DNA of 64,000 nt, from the NCBI GenBank assembly GCA_964291265.2, contig OZ219746.1, forward strand, positions 96,001 through 160,000, written 5' to 3'. This DNA is from Alphaproteobacteria bacterium (lineage in GTDB: Bacteria > Pseudomonadota > Alphaproteobacteria > SP197). Shown here in pieces: positions 44,463 through 63,526 of the stretch. Every line of letters begins with the position of its first letter. The stretch's first letter is position 1. The notes under the pieces are model-generated. The model did not search any database. It was not told the DNA's origin and worked only from the letters and a program-made list of their open reading frames with translations. Both the position numbers and the translations under genes were made by a program.

Positions 44463-45767
44463 ATGGTTGCCGTATCGAAGATCGCCCGCGAGAAGGGTAT
44501 CAGGTATTTCCTGATCAGCTTTTCGGACCTTGCCGGCGTGGCCCGCTCCAAGCTGGTGCCGGCTGCCGCGATCGATGACATGGTGGCTGACGGTGCCGGG
44601 TTCGCCGGGTTTGCCACCCACCTCGACATGACGCCGGCCCATCCGGACATGTTTGCCGTGCCCGATCCCGAATCTCTCATCCAGCTTCCCTGGAAACCGG
44701 AGGTCGGCTGGATGGCCGGCAACCTCGTGATGGCCGGAAGAGAGGTCGACCATGGTCCGCGCAACGTGCTGCGGCGCATGATCGTGCGCGCCGGGGACGA
44801 AGGCATGCGTTTCCGGACCGGTGTGGAGTGCGAGTTCCACCTGATCAACGCCGACGGCAGCGACATTCACGATTCCCGCGACATCATGGACAAGCCGTGC
44901 TATGACCAGCAGGCTCTCATGCGTCGCTATGACGTCATCGCCGAGATCTGCGATGCCATGCTGACCCTGGGCTGGGGGCCCTACCAGAACGACCACGAAG
45001 ACGCCAACGGCCAGTTCGAGATGAACTGGGACTACGCCGATGTCCTCGTGACCGCTGACCGCCACACCTTCTTCAAGTTCATGGTGAAATCGATCGCCGA
45101 GAACCACGGGCTGCGGGCCACGTTCATGCCCAAGCCTTTCACGCACATCACTGGAAACGGCTGCCATACCCATGCCAGCATGTGGAATTCGGCAGGTGAC
45201 ACCAACCTGTTCCACGATCCGGACGGGGAGCTCGGCATTTCCCGGATGGGCTACCACTTCCTCGGTGGCGTGCTCAGGCATGCCCGGGCGCTGACTGCGA
45301 TCTTCAATCCGGTGATCAACAGCTACAAGAGGATCAACGCCCAGGTCACGGCGTCGGGCGCGACATGGTCGCCCAACACGGTCTCCTACACGGGCAACAA
45401 CCGCACGCACATGGTGCGGATTCCCGACGAGGGGCGCTTTGAGTTCCGCCTGATGGACGGGGCCACCAACCCCTACCTGGCCCAGGCCGCCCTGCTCGCC
45501 GCCGGACTTGACGGAATTGCCGGCGAGGTCGATCCAGGCGAGCGTCTTGACGTCAACATGTACGAAACCGATGCCGAAGCGTTGAATGTCGAGCGCCTGC
45601 CGCTCAATCTCCTCGACGCGGTTCGCGTGGCTGAGTCCAACACGATGCTGCGTGACTATCTCGGCGACGAGACCGTCAACGCCTTCCTTTCCATGAAGAA
45701 GCGCGAGTGGCTCGATTACACGCGTCACCTGACCCAGTGGGAGCGTGTCAACACTCTCGATTGCTGA
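44463..45767 (+). CDS. glnT: Type III glutamine synthetase / gamma-glutamylmethylamide synthetase-like
   Basis: GAGFAGFA, KPCYDQQALMRRYD, DHEDANGQFEMNW, ATFMPKPF, NNRTHMVR. Confidence 0.88.
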   Translation: MVAVSKIAREKGIRYFLISFSDLAGVARSKLVPAAAIDDMVADGAGFAGFATHLDMTPAHPDMFAVPDPESLIQLPWKPEVGWMAGNLVMAGREVDHGPRNVLRRMIVRAGDEGMRFRTGVECEFHLINADGSDIHDSRDIMDKPCYDQQALMRRYDVIAEICDAMLTLGWGPYQNDHEDANGQFEMNWDYADVLVTADRHTFFKFMVKSIAENHGLRATFMPKPFTHITGNGCHTHASMWNSAGDTNLFHDPDGELGISRMGYHFLGGVLRHARALTAIFNPVINSYKRINAQVTASGATWSPNTVSYTGNNRTHMVRIPDEGRFEFRLMDGATNPYLAQAALLAAGLDGIAGEVDPGERLDVNMYETDAEALNVERLPLNLLDAVRVAESNTMLRDYLGDETVNAFLSMKKREWLDYTRHLTQWERVNTLDC

Positions 45768-50424: not shown

Positions 50425-50519
50425 GGAGGGGGATCGGTTCCGGTGGACCGCCCGGTCTTCAAAACCGGTGAGGGGCGCAAGGCGTGCCTGGTGGGTTCGA
50501 CTCCTGCCCCCTTCCGCCA
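50425..50519 (+). tRNA. selC: tRNA-Sec(TCA)
   Basis: 95 nt; 8-bp acceptor stem GGAGGGGG/CCCCTTCC, anticodon arm CCGGT-CTTCAAA-ACCGG, long variable arm, GGTTCGACT, G-CCA end. Confidence 0.95.
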
Positions 50520-50531
50520 TCGCGGGGATTC

Positions 50532-52721
50532 ATGGATATCGTTCTGATCGGCGGTGGTCATGCCCACGTCGAGGTTCTGCGAAGCGCTCTCATGACACCC
50601 ATCTCCGGCGCGCGCTTCACCCTGGTCACGCGGGATGTCGCGACACCCTATTCGGGGATGATTCCCGGGTATCTCGCGGGACATTATTCCCGGGCGGAGG
50701 CGCACATCGATCTTGTGCCCCTTGCAGCGCGGGCCGGAGCCCGGCTGATCCATGCTGCCGCCACCGGCCTGGACCCCGAAGCGCGCCAGGTGCAATTCGA
50801 GAACCGTCCCCCCCTGCGTTTCGATGTCGCCTCGCTGAACATCGGTTCCCGACCGGCAAGCGACGGAATCGCCGGAGCCGGGGTGCACGGTCTGCCGGTC
50901 AAGCCAATCGACCGCTTTCTTGAACGCTGGACGGACGTGGAAGCGGTGGCGTGCAGGACCACAGGGCGCTACCGCGTGACGATGGTTGGTGGGGGTGCGG
51001 CCGGCGTCGAGGTCGCCATGGCTCTCCATCGCCGCCTCGCGGACCACATGGACGAGGCCGGGCGTGATTCGGCATCGCTCGTCTTCACCGTCGTGAGCGC
51101 CGATTCGGCCTTGCTGGCGGATCACACGTCCCGCGTGGGCAAGATGCTTGCCCGGGCCCTTGCCGGTGCCGGCATCGGCATCTGCCTGAATGCGCCTGTC
51201 GTGGCACTTGAGCATGGTCATGTCCGCCTGGATGACGGTTCCGCGTTGGAGAGTGATGTCACAGTCCTTGCCACCGGAGCTGCCGCGCCGGACTGGATCC
51301 GCCACACCGGACTCGCCGTTGACAGCAGGGGATTCGTCGCCGTCGATGGCTTCCTGCGTTCGATATCCCACCCGTACGTGTTCGCTGCCGGCGACATCGC
51401 CGGCTTCACACCAGGTGAGCTGCCCAAGAATGGCGTCCACGCCGTGCGCCAGGGGCCGTTTCTGAACAGCACCTTGAGGCGCCTTGCACACGGGCGGGAA
51501 CCAGTGGCCTACAGACCCCAGCGGCACACCCTGGCGCTTGTCTCGACCGGAAGGGCGCGCGCGGTGGCCTCACGGGGACCGGTCGCGGTGTCAGGGCGCT
51601 GGGTGTGGCGGTGGAAGGATCGCATCGACCGGCGGTGGATGCACCGCTATCGGGATCTGCCGATGATGGACGAGGTCCTTCCCATGCGGTGCGGCGGATG
51701 CGGCGCCAAGGTGCCGTCGCGCGTGCTCGAACGGGCGCTGAGCCGTCTGGCTGTTCCCGCCATGCCCGGTGTCCTGGTAGGCCTCGACGCGGCCGACGAC
51801 GCGGCGGTTCTCGCGCCGGTCCCGGGCAAGGTGATGGTGCAGACGGTCGACCAATTCCCGGCCTTCGTTGACGATCCCTGGCTGTTTGGCCGCATCGCGG
51901 CGGTTCACGCACTCTCCGATGTCCACGCCATGGGAGCCGAACCCCATGCCGCCATGGCACTCGTTGGTCTGGTTCCCGGCGAGGCAGACACCATGGAAGA
52001 CGATCTCGTGCACATGCTCGAAGGAGTCCTTTCGATCCTTCGCGAGGAGGGTTGCGCCCTGGTGGGCGGCCATACCGGGGAATCGGACCGCGCCGCCCTG
52101 GGGCTGGCCGTCACCGGTCATGTCGACGAGTCGGCGCTCATTCGTGCTTCGGGCCTCGAACGGGGTGACGTCCTTCTTCTGACAAGACCACTCGGCACCG
52201 GGACACTGCTCGCCGCCAACATGCGCGGCGAGGCCGAGGGTGCGTGGGTCGGGAGCATTCTCGCTGCCATGCAGCGCAGCAATGGACCGGCGGCGCGCCT
52301 TCTCGCCGGTGCCGGCGTCCGTTCGATGACGGACGTGACCGGTTTCGGGCTTGCCGGACACCTGTGGGACATGGCGCGGGCCTCGGGCGTCGCCATCGAG
52401 ATCGGCAGGGTCCCCGCCTATGCCGGGGCGCTCGAACTCCTCGCCCGGGGCCGGGCCAGCACGCTACATCCCGGCAATGTTGCGGCGCTGAAAGGCATCC
52501 TCGATGCCGATGTGGCCGACCCGATCCTGTTTGATCCGCAGACGGCCGGAGGACTCGTTGCCGGACTTCCGGAGGAAAGGGCAGATGAGGCGTTGGCCCT
52601 CCTCCATGAAGCAGGCGAGCTCGGCGCCGCGCTGATCGGACGGGTGACCGGTTCGGAGGCCGCAGCTCTCTCGCTCGGGCCGGGCGCTCAGCCGTTCACG
52701 TATTCCGGCACGAACATGTAG
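50532..52721 (+). CDS. selD: Selenophosphate synthetase fused to an N-terminal FAD/NAD-dependent oxidoreductase
   Basis: GGGHAH and GGGAAGVE (Rossmann), FAAGD; then MRCGGCGAKV, DDAAV, GGHT, TDVTGFGLAGH, DPQTAGGL. Confidence 0.93.
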   Translation: MDIVLIGGGHAHVEVLRSALMTPISGARFTLVTRDVATPYSGMIPGYLAGHYSRAEAHIDLVPLAARAGARLIHAAATGLDPEARQVQFENRPPLRFDVASLNIGSRPASDGIAGAGVHGLPVKPIDRFLERWTDVEAVACRTTGRYRVTMVGGGAAGVEVAMALHRRLADHMDEAGRDSASLVFTVVSADSALLADHTSRVGKMLARALAGAGIGICLNAPVVALEHGHVRLDDGSALESDVTVLATGAAAPDWIRHTGLAVDSRGFVAVDGFLRSISHPYVFAAGDIAGFTPGELPKNGVHAVRQGPFLNSTLRRLAHGREPVAYRPQRHTLALVSTGRARAVASRGPVAVSGRWVWRWKDRIDRRWMHRYRDLPMMDEVLPMRCGGCGAKVPSRVLERALSRLAVPAMPGVLVGLDAADDAAVLAPVPGKVMVQTVDQFPAFVDDPWLFGRIAAVHALSDVHAMGAEPHAAMALVGLVPGEADTMEDDLVHMLEGVLSILREEGCALVGGHTGESDRAALGLAVTGHVDESALIRASGLERGDVLLLTRPLGTGTLLAANMRGEAEGAWVGSILAAMQRSNGPAARLLAGAGVRSMTDVTGFGLAGHLWDMARASGVAIEIGRVPAYAGALELLARGRASTLHPGNVAALKGILDADVADPILFDPQTAGGLVAGLPEERADEALALLHEAGELGAALIGRVTGSEAAALSLGPGAQPFTYSGTNM

Positions 52722-53845
52722 GCTCCCGCGTCGCGGAGCGCCGGGTCGTCGCTCGAGAGACACGTCGAGCGCACATCCTGAATGATCCGGCCGGCCGCAG
52801 TCCGGGTCCAGAACCAGGCGATCACGGCTCCGGTATCGATGGCACCGGTGTAGGCTGCGGCAGACTCCATGTAGTAGGCCTTCAGGTCTTCCGAAGCGAG
52901 GCGCAACTGGTCGATTCCGGCCCCCCGAGCCTGCGTTTCGCCATCGAGCCAGGCGGTGAGCAGCCGGGCGGCGCCGGGCGCGTCCTTGCCCGATCCACCC
53001 AGGGCGGTGCGGCCGCGCCTTGCGACGCTCATCTCATACCAGGGACGCAGGCTGTCGACTTCCTGGAGCAACGGGCCGTCGCGGTTGACGGCCAGGAGGT
53101 CAAGGACATCCCGGTCCTCCCCGTCAGGCGGCGCCTCTTCGGTGAAGTCCTCGAGAACGGACCCGGCTGGTCTGTCGAAGAGGTCGAGGAGGGCCATGAG
53201 GACGCGCCGCTGGAACGGCGCATTGTCTGCCGTACCGAAGGGTCGACCCAGCGGAAACGGCACCCAGAGAGCGCGCGGCGGCCTCACATCCTCGGCCTGA
53301 CCGCGTACCAGAGCGATGAGTGCCGTCGCCAGTCCCTCGTCCTCCATGAATTTTGCCAGTCCGCTCACGGCGCACGTGCAAAGAGGTCAGACGGGGGCGA
53401 GGATGACCGTGTTGACGCCCTCCGCCTTCATCTCGCCGGCAAGGTGGCGCGCCGCGCTTTCCATGGCGAGGGGATCGGTCGCGCCCATGAACGAATAGTG
53501 TGTCTTCGCCACGGAACCGATTGCACCGGTGCCGGCGACCTCCAGGAGCCGCTGCAGTGGGAAGACGACATTGATGTCTTCCTGGAAACCCGTCCGATCG
53601 TGGGATGTCGAAACATGATCCTGAACGACATCCGCCGCATCCTCGACAGGAATGCTCCGGTAGTCTGCCGAGCCCTCGCTGAATGCCTGATCGCCACGCA
53701 GCCGCAGTCCGGCCGAGGACACGAGTGCGACCCGCCGCATGGCCGGCGGCGCCGGTTCGATCCAGGGCGAGCCCGGGATATCGGGACAGGAGAACTCGGT
53801 CAGGAATTCCGCCATGTCCGGGTTGAGGTCAGTCATGCGTACCAA
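52688..53845 (-). CDS. Selenoprotein, PrdB/GrdB (reductase selenoprotein B)-like with C-terminal extension; 385 aa, Sec153
   Basis: ORFs 53387-53845 and 52688-53368 are in frame across TGA 53387-53389, reading ILAPV-U-PLC; VALVSSAG, DINVVFP, HYSFMG, PPRALWVPFPLGRPFG; adjacent selC/selD. Confidence 0.88.
53352..53382 (-). promoter_or_regulatory. Putative bacterial SECIS hairpin
   Basis: UGA CCUC UUUGC AC GUGCGC [CGUGA] GCGGAC UG GCAAA; apical loop 17 nt after UGA with G at its second position. Confidence 0.65.
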
Positions 53846-53861
53846 GGGCGCCTCCTCACGG

Positions 53862-55307
53862 TCAATTGACGCTGTCGACGGTTTCGAGCATCATCGGTGC
53901 GAGAGTATCGACCGTGCGTTCTGCCCAGTCCATCCGTGGCACCGCGTCCATCATGGCCTTCTGGCCGGCTTCCAGGCGATCCAGTTCGGCCGCCAGATCA
54001 ACGGTCACGATCTCTCCATCGGCGACCACGCGCTCGCCATCCACCCAGACATCCTTGACGGCACGTTCGGCAGCGACCACGATGAGTGTGCGCAGGGGCT
54101 CTCGGACTGGCCGCATCGCCGGGTGAGCGAGATCGATCGCCACGAGATCGGCCCTGGCTCCGACGTTGATCTTCCCGAGATCATTGCGCCCCAGGGCCGT
54201 CGCGCCGCCGACCGTGGCGGCATGAAAGATGTCCTGGTAGTCAAGATCGGAGACACTGCCGGCCACGAGGCGGGCGGCAACGGCCGCCGTGCGCATCTCG
54301 TCCAGCATGTTGTGCGGATAGGTGTCGGTGCCCAGGCCCATGACGATCCCGTGCCTCCGGTAACCGCCAAAGGTGTCAAGTGCGATTCCGCGGCGCGAGA
54401 ACACGGTCGGACAATGGGCAACGCCGGCGCCGCAGTCACGCATGAGATCAAGATCGCGACGTGCAGTCCAGTGCAGCCACGGATGATGATCAAGGAAGAT
54501 GCAATGGGCAATCGTGCTTCGTTCATCGAGCACCCCGATGTCGTGCATCCACTGGATCGGCGAGGCACCGTGACGCCTTTGCATCTCGTGGAACTCGGTC
54601 ACGGATTGCGCGGCATGGATCGTCCACGGGAGCTTGCGTTCCCTCGCCGCTGCGTGGCTGTCGCGCAGGGTCTCCTCGCTGCAGGTGTCGACCTGGGAGG
54701 GGGCAACCATGCCCGAAAGGCGGCCTGAGGGATGCTGGCGTGCCAGCTCGATGACGGCCAGCGCCCGCTCCAGCCCCCGGGCGCCGGCGCCTGGCAGCCA
54801 GTCGTAGTCGAGGCTGTGCCCGTCCGTCGTCAACCAGCGTGCATCGCGGAACATCGGTGCGGCGACGGCACGGATGCCGCTCGCAGCAAGGGCGTCGACC
54901 CAGCCGTCGTAGGGCATGGAAAGATCGACCGCCGTGGTGACTCCCGATAGCAGCAATTCGGCGAGCGTCACCTTGAGACAGGCCTCGCGTCCGTCATCGT
55001 CCGTCGGGTTGAAGACCGGCAGGTGTTCATAGAGCGAGCTGTGCCAGAAGCCCGGGGACCGTGTTTCGTCGGTGATCCCCTTGCGCATCGCCTCGCTCTG
55101 GGCGTGGGTGTGGATGTTGACGAGGCCGGGCATGACGAGGAGGCCCGAGCCGTCAATGCGCCGGCTGGCCGGAACGTCCAGGCCCTTGCCGACACGGGTG
55201 ATGGCGCCGTTGGCGAAGGCGAGGTCGGCATGCCGCAGGTAGACATGCCTTGTTCCGTCCCAGGCCACGAGCCAGGCAATATCGTGGATGAGGGTTGTGT
55301 CATGCAT
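53862..55307 (-). CDS. Metal-dependent amidohydrolase (AtzA/SsnA/deaminase-like)
   Basis: PGLVNIHTH, SGVTT, IHAAQ, IAHC, GLGTD, GARADL. Confidence 0.88.
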   Translation of the reverse strand: MHDTTLIHDIAWLVAWDGTRHVYLRHADLAFANGAITRVGKGLDVPASRRIDGSGLLVMPGLVNIHTHAQSEAMRKGITDETRSPGFWHSSLYEHLPVFNPTDDDGREACLKVTLAELLLSGVTTAVDLSMPYDGWVDALAASGIRAVAAPMFRDARWLTTDGHSLDYDWLPGAGARGLERALAVIELARQHPSGRLSGMVAPSQVDTCSEETLRDSHAAARERKLPWTIHAAQSVTEFHEMQRRHGASPIQWMHDIGVLDERSTIAHCIFLDHHPWLHWTARRDLDLMRDCGAGVAHCPTVFSRRGIALDTFGGYRRHGIVMGLGTDTYPHNMLDEMRTAAVAARLVAGSVSDLDYQDIFHAATVGGATALGRNDLGKINVGARADLVAIDLAHPAMRPVREPLRTLIVVAAERAVKDVWVDGERVVADGEIVTVDLAAELDRLEAGQKAMMDAVPRMDWAERTVDTLAPMMLETVDSVN

Positions 55308-56129: not shown

Positions 56130-57164
56130 CTAGACCTTGACCGTGCCACCGGCCTCGCGCCATGCGGCAATGCCGCCGATCATGTGGCAGACATTGCGCA
56201 CGCCGCACTGGCGCGAACTCTCTACCGCCATCGCCGAACGCTCGCCGAAGGCGCAGTAGTAGACAAGTCGATGGCCAGGACGCCCGGCGAGGGCGCGCAG
56301 CGCCCCGCCGGGTTCGATCATCTCCGCGAGGCGATCGTATGGCGCATGCACCGAGCCGGGGATCGTTCCTTCGCGGGCCCGTTCACCGGCCTCACGCAGG
56401 TCGACGAGGATGTCGTCGGGCCGGCGGTCGTGCATCACATCGCGCGCGTGCATCGCGCACTCGGGATGCGCTTCGTCCTCTTGATCTCGGCCGACGCTGA
56501 GATTCGCCGGAACAGCCACGTCCATCATCCTGGGGTCGCTGAGATCGAGGCTGTCCATCAGTTCCGCGTATTCGGCGGGCGAGGCAACCTGGAGGCGAGG
56601 GTTGAAGCGCCTCTCCTCGCCGATGGTGCTCACCGTGTCACCCTTATAGTCGTGGCCGGGATAGACCAGGGTCTCGTCGGGCAGCGTCAGCAACTTGCCG
56701 AAGAGCGAGTCGTACTGCTGCAACGCGTCGCCGTTCTGGAAGTCTGTGCGGCCGGTGCCGCGGATCAGCAGCGTGTCGCCGGTGAAGACCCGGTCCGCCA
56801 TCACGAAGCTGTAGGAATCGGCGGTGTGCCCCGGCGTGTGGAGTGCGCGCAGGCTCACGCCCTCGACCTCGATCGGGTCGCCATCGTCAACGCGCATCGA
56901 GACCACGTTCACCGGCGCCTCGCGGCCCATCACGGTGATGCAACGGGTGCGGTCGCGCAGTGCCGCCATGCCGCTGATGTGGTCAGCGTGGACATGGGTA
57001 TCGAGCACCTTGGCAAGCGTGAGGTCAAGTTCGTCCAGCAGTGTGAGGTAGCGCTCCACCCGCTCCTCTACAGGGTCGATGATGAGCGCCTCGCCCCCGG
57101 CTTGCCCGCCCAGCAGGTAGGTGTAGGTGCCCGAATCCTGATGATGGAGTTGGCGAAAGATCAT
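56130..57164 (-). CDS. Persulfide dioxygenase (ETHE1-like MBL) - rhodanese fusion
   Basis: THVHADHISG, TPGHT, FTGDTLL..G.GRTDF, YPGHDY; C-terminal YCAFGERS. Confidence 0.9.
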   Translation of the reverse strand: MIFRQLHHQDSGTYTYLLGGQAGGEALIIDPVEERVERYLTLLDELDLTLAKVLDTHVHADHISGMAALRDRTRCITVMGREAPVNVVSMRVDDGDPIEVEGVSLRALHTPGHTADSYSFVMADRVFTGDTLLIRGTGRTDFQNGDALQQYDSLFGKLLTLPDETLVYPGHDYKGDTVSTIGEERRFNPRLQVASPAEYAELMDSLDLSDPRMMDVAVPANLSVGRDQEDEAHPECAMHARDVMHDRRPDDILVDLREAGERAREGTIPGSVHAPYDRLAEMIEPGGALRALAGRPGHRLVYYCAFGERSAMAVESSRQCGVRNVCHMIGGIAAWREAGGTVKV

Positions 57165-62701: not shown

Positions 62702-63526
62702 ATGAGTCATTGGGATCTTGACGATATCGATTGGCAAGCCTTCGATCGGCCCAGTGTCGTTCCCGACATGGTTCGCATCGTCAAGGCTGCTTCGCTGGTC
62801 GAGTACAACGGCGATCTCTATGGCCGGTATCTGGCGAACATCTTTGCGGGCGACGATGCCTTCGTCGCAGCCGCGGAAACCTGGGCCACGGAAGAGGTGC
62901 GCCATGGCGTCGCCCTGGGGCGTTGGGCCACCATGGCTGACCCTGCCTGGGATTTCGAAACGGCGCGGGAGCGATTCAGGTCCGAATGCAACCAGGTCGA
63001 TCTCAGCCTCGAGCACTCGGTGCGTGGTTCGCGTTTCAGCGAACTGGTCGCCCGCTGCATCGTCGAGGTGGGAACGTCGTCCTACTACACCGCCCTTGCC
63101 GATGCGACGAAGGAGCCCGTCCTGAGGCAGATCTTCAGGAAGATCGCGGCCGACGAGTTCCGTCACTACAAGCTGTTCTACGACCACATGAAGCGGTATC
63201 GGGCGATCGACAATCCCAATCTCCTGACACGGGTCCGTGTCGCCGTGACCCGCCTTGCCGAATCGGAGGATGACGAACTCGCCTTCGCCTACTACATCGC
63301 CAACAACGTTCCGGAGGCCTACGACCGGAAGGCCTGCGCCGCTGCCTACGGCAGCCGGGCCCTGCCGCACTACCGGCGAAACCACATCCGCCTGGCCGTC
63401 AACATGACGACGAAGGCCATGGGTCTGGAACCGAGGAGCCGCCTGGCCTCCCTGATTGCATGGGTTGTCTGCCGCCTCTTCGAATGGCGCCGCCAGCGCC
63501 TTCTGCAACAGGCTCCCGCCTATTGA
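62702..63526 (+). CDS. Ferritin-like diiron protein
   Basis: WATEEVRHG and IAADEFRH ExxH motifs. Confidence 0.85.
   Translation: MSHWDLDDIDWQAFDRPSVVPDMVRIVKAASLVEYNGDLYGRYLANIFAGDDAFVAAAETWATEEVRHGVALGRWATMADPAWDFETARERFRSECNQVDLSLEHSVRGSRFSELVARCIVEVGTSSYYTALADATKEPVLRQIFRKIAADEFRHYKLFYDHMKRYRAIDNPNLLTRVRVAVTRLAESEDDELAFAYYIANNVPEAYDRKACAAAYGSRALPHYRRNHIRLAVNMTTKAMGLEPRSRLASLIAWVVCRLFEWRRQRLLQQAPAY

Follow-up and report, generated by a model that had tools for sequence, protein, structure and literature searches.

In a 64,000-nucleotide (nt) stretch of an alphaproteobacterial genome (assembly GCA_964291265.2, contig OZ219746.1, positions 96,001 to 160,000; hereafter the window), two apparent genes on the minus strand are almost certainly a single gene that is read through a TGA codon, and the codon very likely encodes selenocysteine (Sec). 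The product is a 385-amino-acid (aa) relative of PrdB, the B subunit of D-proline reductase, in a long form that carries an additional C-terminal domain (C-domain). Because it has this extra domain and none of proline reductase's partners, the protein likely works alone, and we consider it highly probable that it is a stand-alone redox enzyme recycled by thiols and not a D-proline reductase. Our preferred reading of its chemistry, held tentatively (probability about 0.4), is the reductive cleavage, by a single chain and without PrdA, of a pre-activated C–X bond in a small organic molecule.

A probable single gene spanning a TGA codon

Translation of the minus strand from 53845 to 52688 gives one continuous frame with a single internal TGA, in the context VILAPV-U-PLCTCAVSGLA. 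Gene calling with translation table 11 breaks this frame, giving a 152-aa piece at 53845-53387 and a 226-aa piece at 53368-52688, and a 219-aa entry in the protein collection matches the C-terminal half with 100% identity; because gene callers split the gene, both halves are mis-annotated. A first-pass annotation, made from the sequence alone, had joined the two frames across the TGA into a 385-aa selenoprotein, and both the frame and the length hold in our translation. The TTG start is backed by a GAGGAGG motif 5 nt upstream and by the N-termini of homologs (MVRL or MVKL). The TGA is invariant in three of three sequencing runs (compared as contigs; all from one study, the best of them perhaps this DNA's own source), and one strain among them has 23 other differences with the TGA unchanged. 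Since no variant appears at the TGA in any of these runs, it is no read error.

A protein search recovered 728 relatives among 8,000 candidates; among the 120 listed, full-length homologs are 369–436 aa long and cover 84%–99% of the query, and all 25 that were aligned have P-V-C-P-x-C at the Sec site. At the DNA level, the codon at this site is TGA in 73 of 80 loci and TGC or TGT in the other seven; these are the best 80 of 363 loci, picked by similarity to the PrdB-like protein, and the ratio is therefore no census of the family. In a wider set of 110 loci (the 80 plus 30 from relatives; the sets overlap and the window's own locus is counted), the site is always followed by Pro (+1) and Cys (+3) and never reads TAA or TAG. 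A match is found in 22 of 22 genomes of the same genus, the best match having an in-frame TGA in all 22, and in 29 of 32 genomes of the same family. Against six close relatives, dN/dS is ~0.10–0.18 in the PrdB-like part, both before and after the TGA, and 0.23–0.53 in the C-domain. A selA search in 50 of the 80 host genomes gave a match in 42 of 43 hosts with TGA-type genes and in three of seven with Cys-type genes, one of these three matches being a fragment.

The case for a selenocysteine insertion sequence (SECIS)-like stem-loop downstream of the TGA is one of conservation across species, not of energy: the hairpin folds no better than chance (25 of 200 shuffles are just as stable; z −1.19). 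The first-pass annotation placed a hairpin 4 nt after the TGA. Judged by its conservation the stem-loop is real, but the predicted stem begins at the base directly after the UGA, and the conserved part spans nt 10–36, counted from the U. The apical loop CGUGA lies at nt 21–25 and its G is invariant across the TGA genes; a small apical loop carrying a G is named as a feature of the bacterial SECIS in the relevant passage of an earlier survey (PMC1088965). Dereplication at 80% identity left 38 TGA genes with 149 fourfold sites, among which the four lowest third-position entropies are those of codons +4, +5, +6 and +8 (0.0–0.35 bits, with those at +5 and +8 resting on 22 and 21 sequences); the lowest value elsewhere is 0.63 bits, and the mean is 1.45. 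Three apical pairs of the stem are invariant. At pair 16-30 all 36 distinct sequences keep Watson-Crick pairing (CG 20, UA 15, AU 1), and the outer pairs 10-36, 11-35 and 17-29 are frequently broken. The covariation score was reached by none of 500 shuffles, a score that kinship can inflate.

From these data we infer Sec insertion at residue 153. Full-length Cys homologs that span the TGA, the constraint on the SECIS-like element and the sel genes described below all speak for the read-through that the first pass had proposed. That the TGA is a genuine stop, leaving two separate genes or a pseudogene, is scarcely credible: gene callers do split the frame, and the hairpin energy by itself is unremarkable, but a stop here would halve one predicted domain (residues 33–240) and leave U-P-L-C-T-C untranslated, and against it stand the 110 loci with TGA or a Cys codon and the constraint and covariation downstream. 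A home-made genome-wide scan for TGA codons with SECIS elements was discarded, as it missed the PrdB-like gene itself and its output was mostly noise.

The host genome holds selA, selB, selC (tRNA-Sec) and selD. The first two, which the first pass proposed to look for elsewhere in the genome, score above cut-off and are neighbours on contig C2. The sole selD match in the genome is a fusion with an oxidoreductase (TIGR03169, 426 bits versus a cut-off of 310; TIGR00476, 272 versus 125), which scores below the cut-off of TIGR04369, the "fusion_not_SelD" model. It begins 13 nt after tRNA-Sec. Of the arrangement first described here, a selD downstream of tRNA-Sec that converges on the PrdB-like gene and overlaps it by 34 bp, the geometry stands, and the "selD" turns out to be this fusion.

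Features at the PrdB-like locus, in window coordinates
Feature	Position	Strand	Remarks
Long-form PrdB-like selenoprotein gene	52688..53845	-	385 aa, TTG start, TGA stop; from continuous translation and homologs
In-frame TGA, predicted Sec153	53387..53389	-	First residue of U-P-L-C-T-C (Cys156, Cys158)
SECIS-like stem-loop	53354..53380	-	Apical stem 53375-53359; loop CGUGA 53369-53365; invariant G at 53368
Shine-Dalgarno motif GAGGAGG	53851..53857	-	5 nt before TTG
PrdB/GrdB-like catalytic domain, residues ~33-240	53126..53749	-	Predicted Rossmann-like alpha/beta fold; Sec at start of helix 154-169
C-terminal all-helical domain, residues 238-385 (148 aa)	52691..53134	-	Family-specific
FAD-oxidoreductase-SelD fusion, 729 aa	50532..52721	+	Convergent with PrdB-like gene; 34-bp overlap
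tRNA-Sec, anticodon UCA	50425..50515	+	RF01852, 73.2 bits versus gathering threshold 47
Upstream amidohydrolase (chlorohydrolase/TRZ-ATZ-like, below cut-offs)	53862..55307	-	16-bp gap to PrdB-like gene

Several close relatives have two or three intact paralogs per genome, and at six of the loci (L018, L020, L023, L030, L036 and L039) the first copy is followed, a few bases on, by a tandem duplicate of the PrdB-like gene. The host genome contains a decayed second paralog outside the window (contig C2, 1242543-1243142), consisting of ~100 N-terminal codons interrupted by stops and frameshifts; it is 83.5% identical to an intact Sec-type copy in a related genome (G004) and lies ~7.4 kb from the upstream syntenic block.

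Kinship, fold and earlier records

The kinship with GrdB and PrdB proposed from the UxxC motif is confirmed by a PF07355 match above cut-off (36.9 versus 22 bits, E 3.5e-9). The best NCBIfam model is that of PrdB itself (TIGR04483), at 76.3 bits versus an equivalog cut-off of 300; four Cys homologs reach 98–141 bits. Homology with clostridial PrdB (242 aa, with Sec152 in C. sticklandii, as given in the part of PMC3091704 consulted) covers the catalytic domain, residues 36–219 (E 2.3e-21), with the Sec at nearly the same position and UxxC in common. Against clostridial PrdB, the window protein has a far lower model score, a length of 385 aa and an extra helical domain, and its host has cytochrome c oxidase and no prdA, prdC or linked prdF match. 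The core also aligns to bona fide GrdB (E 1e-21, profile positions 25–223). With selenoprotein B (GrdB/GrdF/GrdH; ~430 aa), homology is confined to the C-terminal catalytic half (PF07355 positions 201–345; TIGR01918 at 40 bits versus a cut-off of 65, C-terminal half only); the window protein lacks the N-terminal 200 positions and has UxxCxC rather than UxxCxxC. The UGSC family (NF041046), another uncharacterized UxxC selenoprotein abundant in the same marine surveys, gives no match to the window protein at E ≤ 0.1. One of its members, with the motif D-U-G-S-C-T-S-C, one TGA and a score of 113.5 versus 125 bits, is encoded elsewhere in the host genome (contig C2, 3712487-3712915), directly after a ~470-aa gene.

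The partner subunits of the clostridial systems were not found. The absence of a PrdA or GrdE partner, first noted for the window, holds for the entire genome and for 60 related ones as well: PF09338 (PrdA/GrdE/G/I) has no match in these 61 genomes. The same search does find PF09338 in three of 50 more distant host genomes, a positive control, and in all three a proprotein adjoins the genome's own full-length GrdB-type gene (three of five loci). PrdA (TIGR04480) was not matched in the host genome, in a search without a positive control; neither was GrdA (PF04723), for which no positive control rang, and GrdC and GrdD were not searched for. The best PrdC score in the genome is 34 bits versus a cut-off of 490, and the locus, having no linked prdC or prdF, is no prd operon. 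A proline-racemase-family gene does exist elsewhere in the genome. Together with the TIGR04483 match it is what favors the database label, by which the protein would be a true D-proline reductase B subunit with an unrecognized pyruvoyl partner. We regard this as highly improbable, given 76 bits where 300 are required, no PrdA or PF09338 in 61 of 61 genomes, no PrdC, and a racemase-family gene that is not linked to the locus and whose best model is trans-3-hydroxy-L-proline dehydratase, with no score reaching a cut-off.

An AlphaFold model of the protein (pLDDT 83, pTM 0.80) predicts an alpha/beta domain in which U153 opens helix 154–169, followed by helices. The best VIA match of residues 33–240 has a Z of 9.3 (rmsd 3.1, 135 aligned), and the top 50 structural matches of the core (Z 7.2–9.3) are LacI/periplasmic-binding and SDR-type domains, with no thioredoxin fold among them; the predicted core would thus be a generic Rossmann-like arrangement. 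The C-terminal domain that the first pass could not assign is a 148-aa helical unit that, when modelled alone, folds confidently (pLDDT 87). No Pfam family was found for 63 C-domain sequences; two single Pfam matches at E ~0.035 were disregarded. A sequence search of the PDB gave no match for the PrdB-like protein, a family profile reached only E 0.7–2.3 there, which we take as chance, and Foldseek returned nothing at E ≤ 0.001 for either the whole model or the C-domain. The best VIA-align score of the modelled C-domain (Z 5.2, rmsd 4.4, 91 aligned) is at the level of common helical arrangements and is evidence for neither a structural relative nor a novel fold; no solved structure resembles the domain. 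At E ≤ 0.001 its profile finds 975 clusters (50% identity). Fourteen inspected among the best 150 listed comprise halves of the family, fragments, one Cys full-length protein and two apparent chimeric or frameshifted calls, with no other architecture established.

Any novelty of the protein as a sequence falls away on comparison with earlier surveys. The Sargasso Sea data yielded 42 UXXC selenoproteins named PrdB (PMC1088965), and the marine Global Ocean Sampling (GOS) survey 235 Sec and 110 Cys sequences of "proline reductase PrdB", assigned to pfam07355 (PMC2398784). In GOS supplement file 3, "RGRTT" occurs 13 times and the "#Proline reductase" section fills parts 21–27. Reads in its parts 21–22 include ones with PV-U-P-x-C, the WxCP linker, RRGRTTVG and the C-domain motif DLKAFY..E; the match to the window protein is by motif, without formal alignment. 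The section mixes several shorter subfamilies, and the window member differs in having UxxCxC and having lost the linker cysteine. Because reads with the C-domain stand in this section, the long form, C-domain included, was catalogued in 2008. In the passages concerned, the GOS and Sargasso papers treat the set as D-proline reductase, and neither the C-domain nor the absence of PrdA comes up there; a 2026 review, where it treats PrdB, describes a clostridial enzyme only (PMC13188914), and two further papers give, in the sections concerned, counts only (PMC5029168, PMC1794560). No paper on a partnerless or long form was found in the literature searched, which mostly leaves out subscription journals. 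The window protein is a new representative of a family already known, though misnamed and functionally open, and its sequence will be no surprise to a selenoprotein specialist, the family having been catalogued in 2005 and 2008. What it brings out is that a group ranking among the most abundant marine selenoproteins bears a name unsupported by its gene context. Since natural Cys homologs exist, the family should be easy to express and assay, and the question of its substrate is directly testable.

Candidate functions of the long form

In the preferred reading, the Sec153 selenolate would attack a carbon bearing a good leaving group (an onium N or S, a thioether, or a halide next to a carbonyl). 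Cys156 would then cleave the selenoether, so that the reduced product departs and an Se–S bond remains, and glutathione (GSH) or thioredoxin would re-reduce this center. A third cysteine (Cys158 here, the linker WxCPV cysteine in most relatives) may shuttle or protect the oxidized center, and the helical C-domain may replace PrdA as a lid or as a specificity or oligomerization module. Two precedents lead to this best guess. For PrdB, the selenolate has been proposed to attack a substrate carbon activated by the PrdA pyruvoyl group, after which a PrdB cysteine cleaves the selenoether (PMC3091704, in the passage on mechanism); a PrdB-type core could therefore complete the cycle without GrdA or GrdC. 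The betaine subunit GrdI and the fluoroacetate subunit FarE are described, in the relevant part of PMC10838667, as acting without pyruvoyl processing, so that no such step would be required where the substrate carries a good leaving group. Carried to its full extent, the proposal would make the long-form family single-chain, PrdA-free selenoenzymes that bring Stickland-type C–X cleavage to oxygen-respiring bacteria, acting on an abundant onium or thioether metabolite (betaine- or sulfonium-type) through a three-chalcogen relay under a helical lid. This version is rather unlikely to hold in every part; if true, an undescribed aerobic Sec-dependent catabolic reaction would stand under a wrong database name.

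A number of observations weigh against single-chain C–X cleavage. The motif U-P-x-C differs from the S/T-T-U-G-T-C of GrdB; it resembles the CPxC of glutaredoxins and fits the rival readings equally well. The role given to the C-domain is a guess, and the domain is under weaker constraint. No neighbor is conserved family-wide in the 80 loci; TauD, glutathione S-transferase (GST) and AhpD neighbors come from few kin groups and none stands beside the window gene, and AhpD-like queries have no match in the host genome at E ≤ 1e-4. The pyruvoyl-free betaine and fluoroacetate systems, again as described in part of PMC10838667, still have a partner subunit.

The distribution of the third cysteine is suggestive, if weakly, of a need for a third thiol. 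In most family members the linker that precedes the C-domain contains the WxCPV cysteine; the window member lacks this cysteine and has UxxCxC. Among the 80 loci the third cysteine is in the linker only in 48, in both places in 23, in UxxCxC only in nine, and in neither in none. In a quick tree of 85 rows (its careful search unfinished; it omits four odd-length loci and 21 of the 29 loci from relatives), UxxCxC defines two distinct clades, the linker cysteine has been lost twice, both times inside one UxxCxC clade, and the five Cys-type rows group together in a single clade on a long branch. The pattern thus comes down to two loss events in an unfinished tree, a further point against the preferred reading. 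UxxCxxC is cited elsewhere as a protection against oxidation (PMC6778437, in the passage on this motif).

Gene neighborhoods bear on the preferred reading and on its alternatives. A Pfam scan of neighbors covered a sample (118 proteins from 167 listed, plus two), as the coding filter missed some real genes. TauD-family genes, which we count toward the preferred reading, occur in eight of the 80 loci, directly adjacent in seven, in two separate clades (the Cys clade and a betaproteobacterial Sec clade); GSTs in eight, adjacent in three; TetR genes in nine; tandem paralogs in seven; and AhpD/YciW-like CxxU selenoproteins in seven. As the recurring groups are kin, they represent few independent events.

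The best placed of the alternatives, though unlikely, is that the same selenoprotein reduces peroxides, sulfoxides or N-oxides in oxidant defense, the selenolate taking up oxygen, Cys156 forming the Se–S bond, and thiols or an AhpD-like partner recycling the enzyme. Betaproteobacterial homologs do lie in TetR-led clusters, with AhpD/YciW-like CxxU genes 39–48 bp upstream in three loci and ~270 bp downstream in two, and with GSTs 47–102 bp downstream in three; the host has cytochrome c oxidase, and GrdB reportedly shows peroxidase activity, going by the title of a 2007 paper by Grobe. But selenoprotein genes cluster with one another and with selA, selB and selD whatever their function, the host genome gives no AhpD-like match, and two or three diverged paralogs per genome suggest substrate specialization. 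TetR queries likewise had no match in the host genome.

It is rather doubtful that the protein is a thiol-disulfide oxidoreductase or deglutathionylase whose U-P-x-C attacks sulfur in disulfides or GSH conjugates, glutaredoxin-like in a non-thioredoxin fold. Such a role would suit the Pro and Cys kept in all 110 loci at a predicted helix N-terminus and the neighboring GSTs, which resemble GSH-dependent disulfide oxidoreductases (one above cut-off), and the 2005 survey, in the passage concerned, put PrdB among thiol-dependent redox selenoproteins. The predicted fold appears Rossmann-like, with LacI-type domains as best matches, rather than thioredoxin-like, and the GrdB/PrdB core residues are kept, whose known role is small-molecule C–N cleavage.

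Very unlikely is a role in handling selenium, as a carrier or as a reductase of a selenium intermediate acting with the adjacent oxidoreductase-SelD fusion. The overlap with selD at the window locus points this way, and sel genes recur within 8 kb in several lineages (selD in 16 of the 80 loci, selB in about ten, one member of that neighbor cluster looking like another GTPase, and selA in nine). However, most loci have no sel gene nearby, Cys-type homologs occur in four genomes without a selA match, and the window gene, being convergent, is not co-transcribed with selD.

Neighboring genes and minor observations

The amidohydrolase upstream is probably co-transcribed with the PrdB-like gene; it adjoins it in 13 of the 80 loci, all from close kin of the host. 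The host genome is 100% complete and encodes gshB, trxB and four YfcG/YghU-like GSTs, in keeping with the proposed recycling by thiols. The AhpD/YciW-like selenoproteins (GCHY-U, GCAY-U or DCNY-U) that flank seven loci (L058, L063, L065, L067, L074, L076 and L081) form multi-selenoprotein clusters with the PrdB-like genes and are likewise split by gene callers. In three genomes of one genus (G003, G018 and G014; loci L126-L128) a diverged paralog lies 2–3 kb upstream of sarcosine-oxidase-family soxB/D/A on the same strand, a linkage that counts as one event. On contig C2, ARAGORN calls eight 101-nt "tRNA-Arg(acg)" genes (e.g., 454367-454467 and 2529506-2529606) in addition to a regular 77-nt gene; the eight are probably copies of a dispersed repeat or of a mobile element end.

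Elsewhere in the window, the minus-strand segment 57584-62275 encodes a TOTE-type primase plus helicase of 848 aa, a PIN-domain protein and an HTH-IrrE/M78 peptidase, and it resembles a conflict or toxin-antitoxin module that has been inserted. A type III glutamate-ammonia ligase (44463-45767, plus strand; TIGR03105 above cut-off) is one that we take to be of the gamma-glutamylmethylamide synthetase type, a hint of methylamine use. An MBL-fold and rhodanese fusion (56130-57164, minus strand) is presumably persulfide-dioxygenase-like, and a ferritin-like/desaturase-fold protein is encoded at 62702-63526 on the plus strand.

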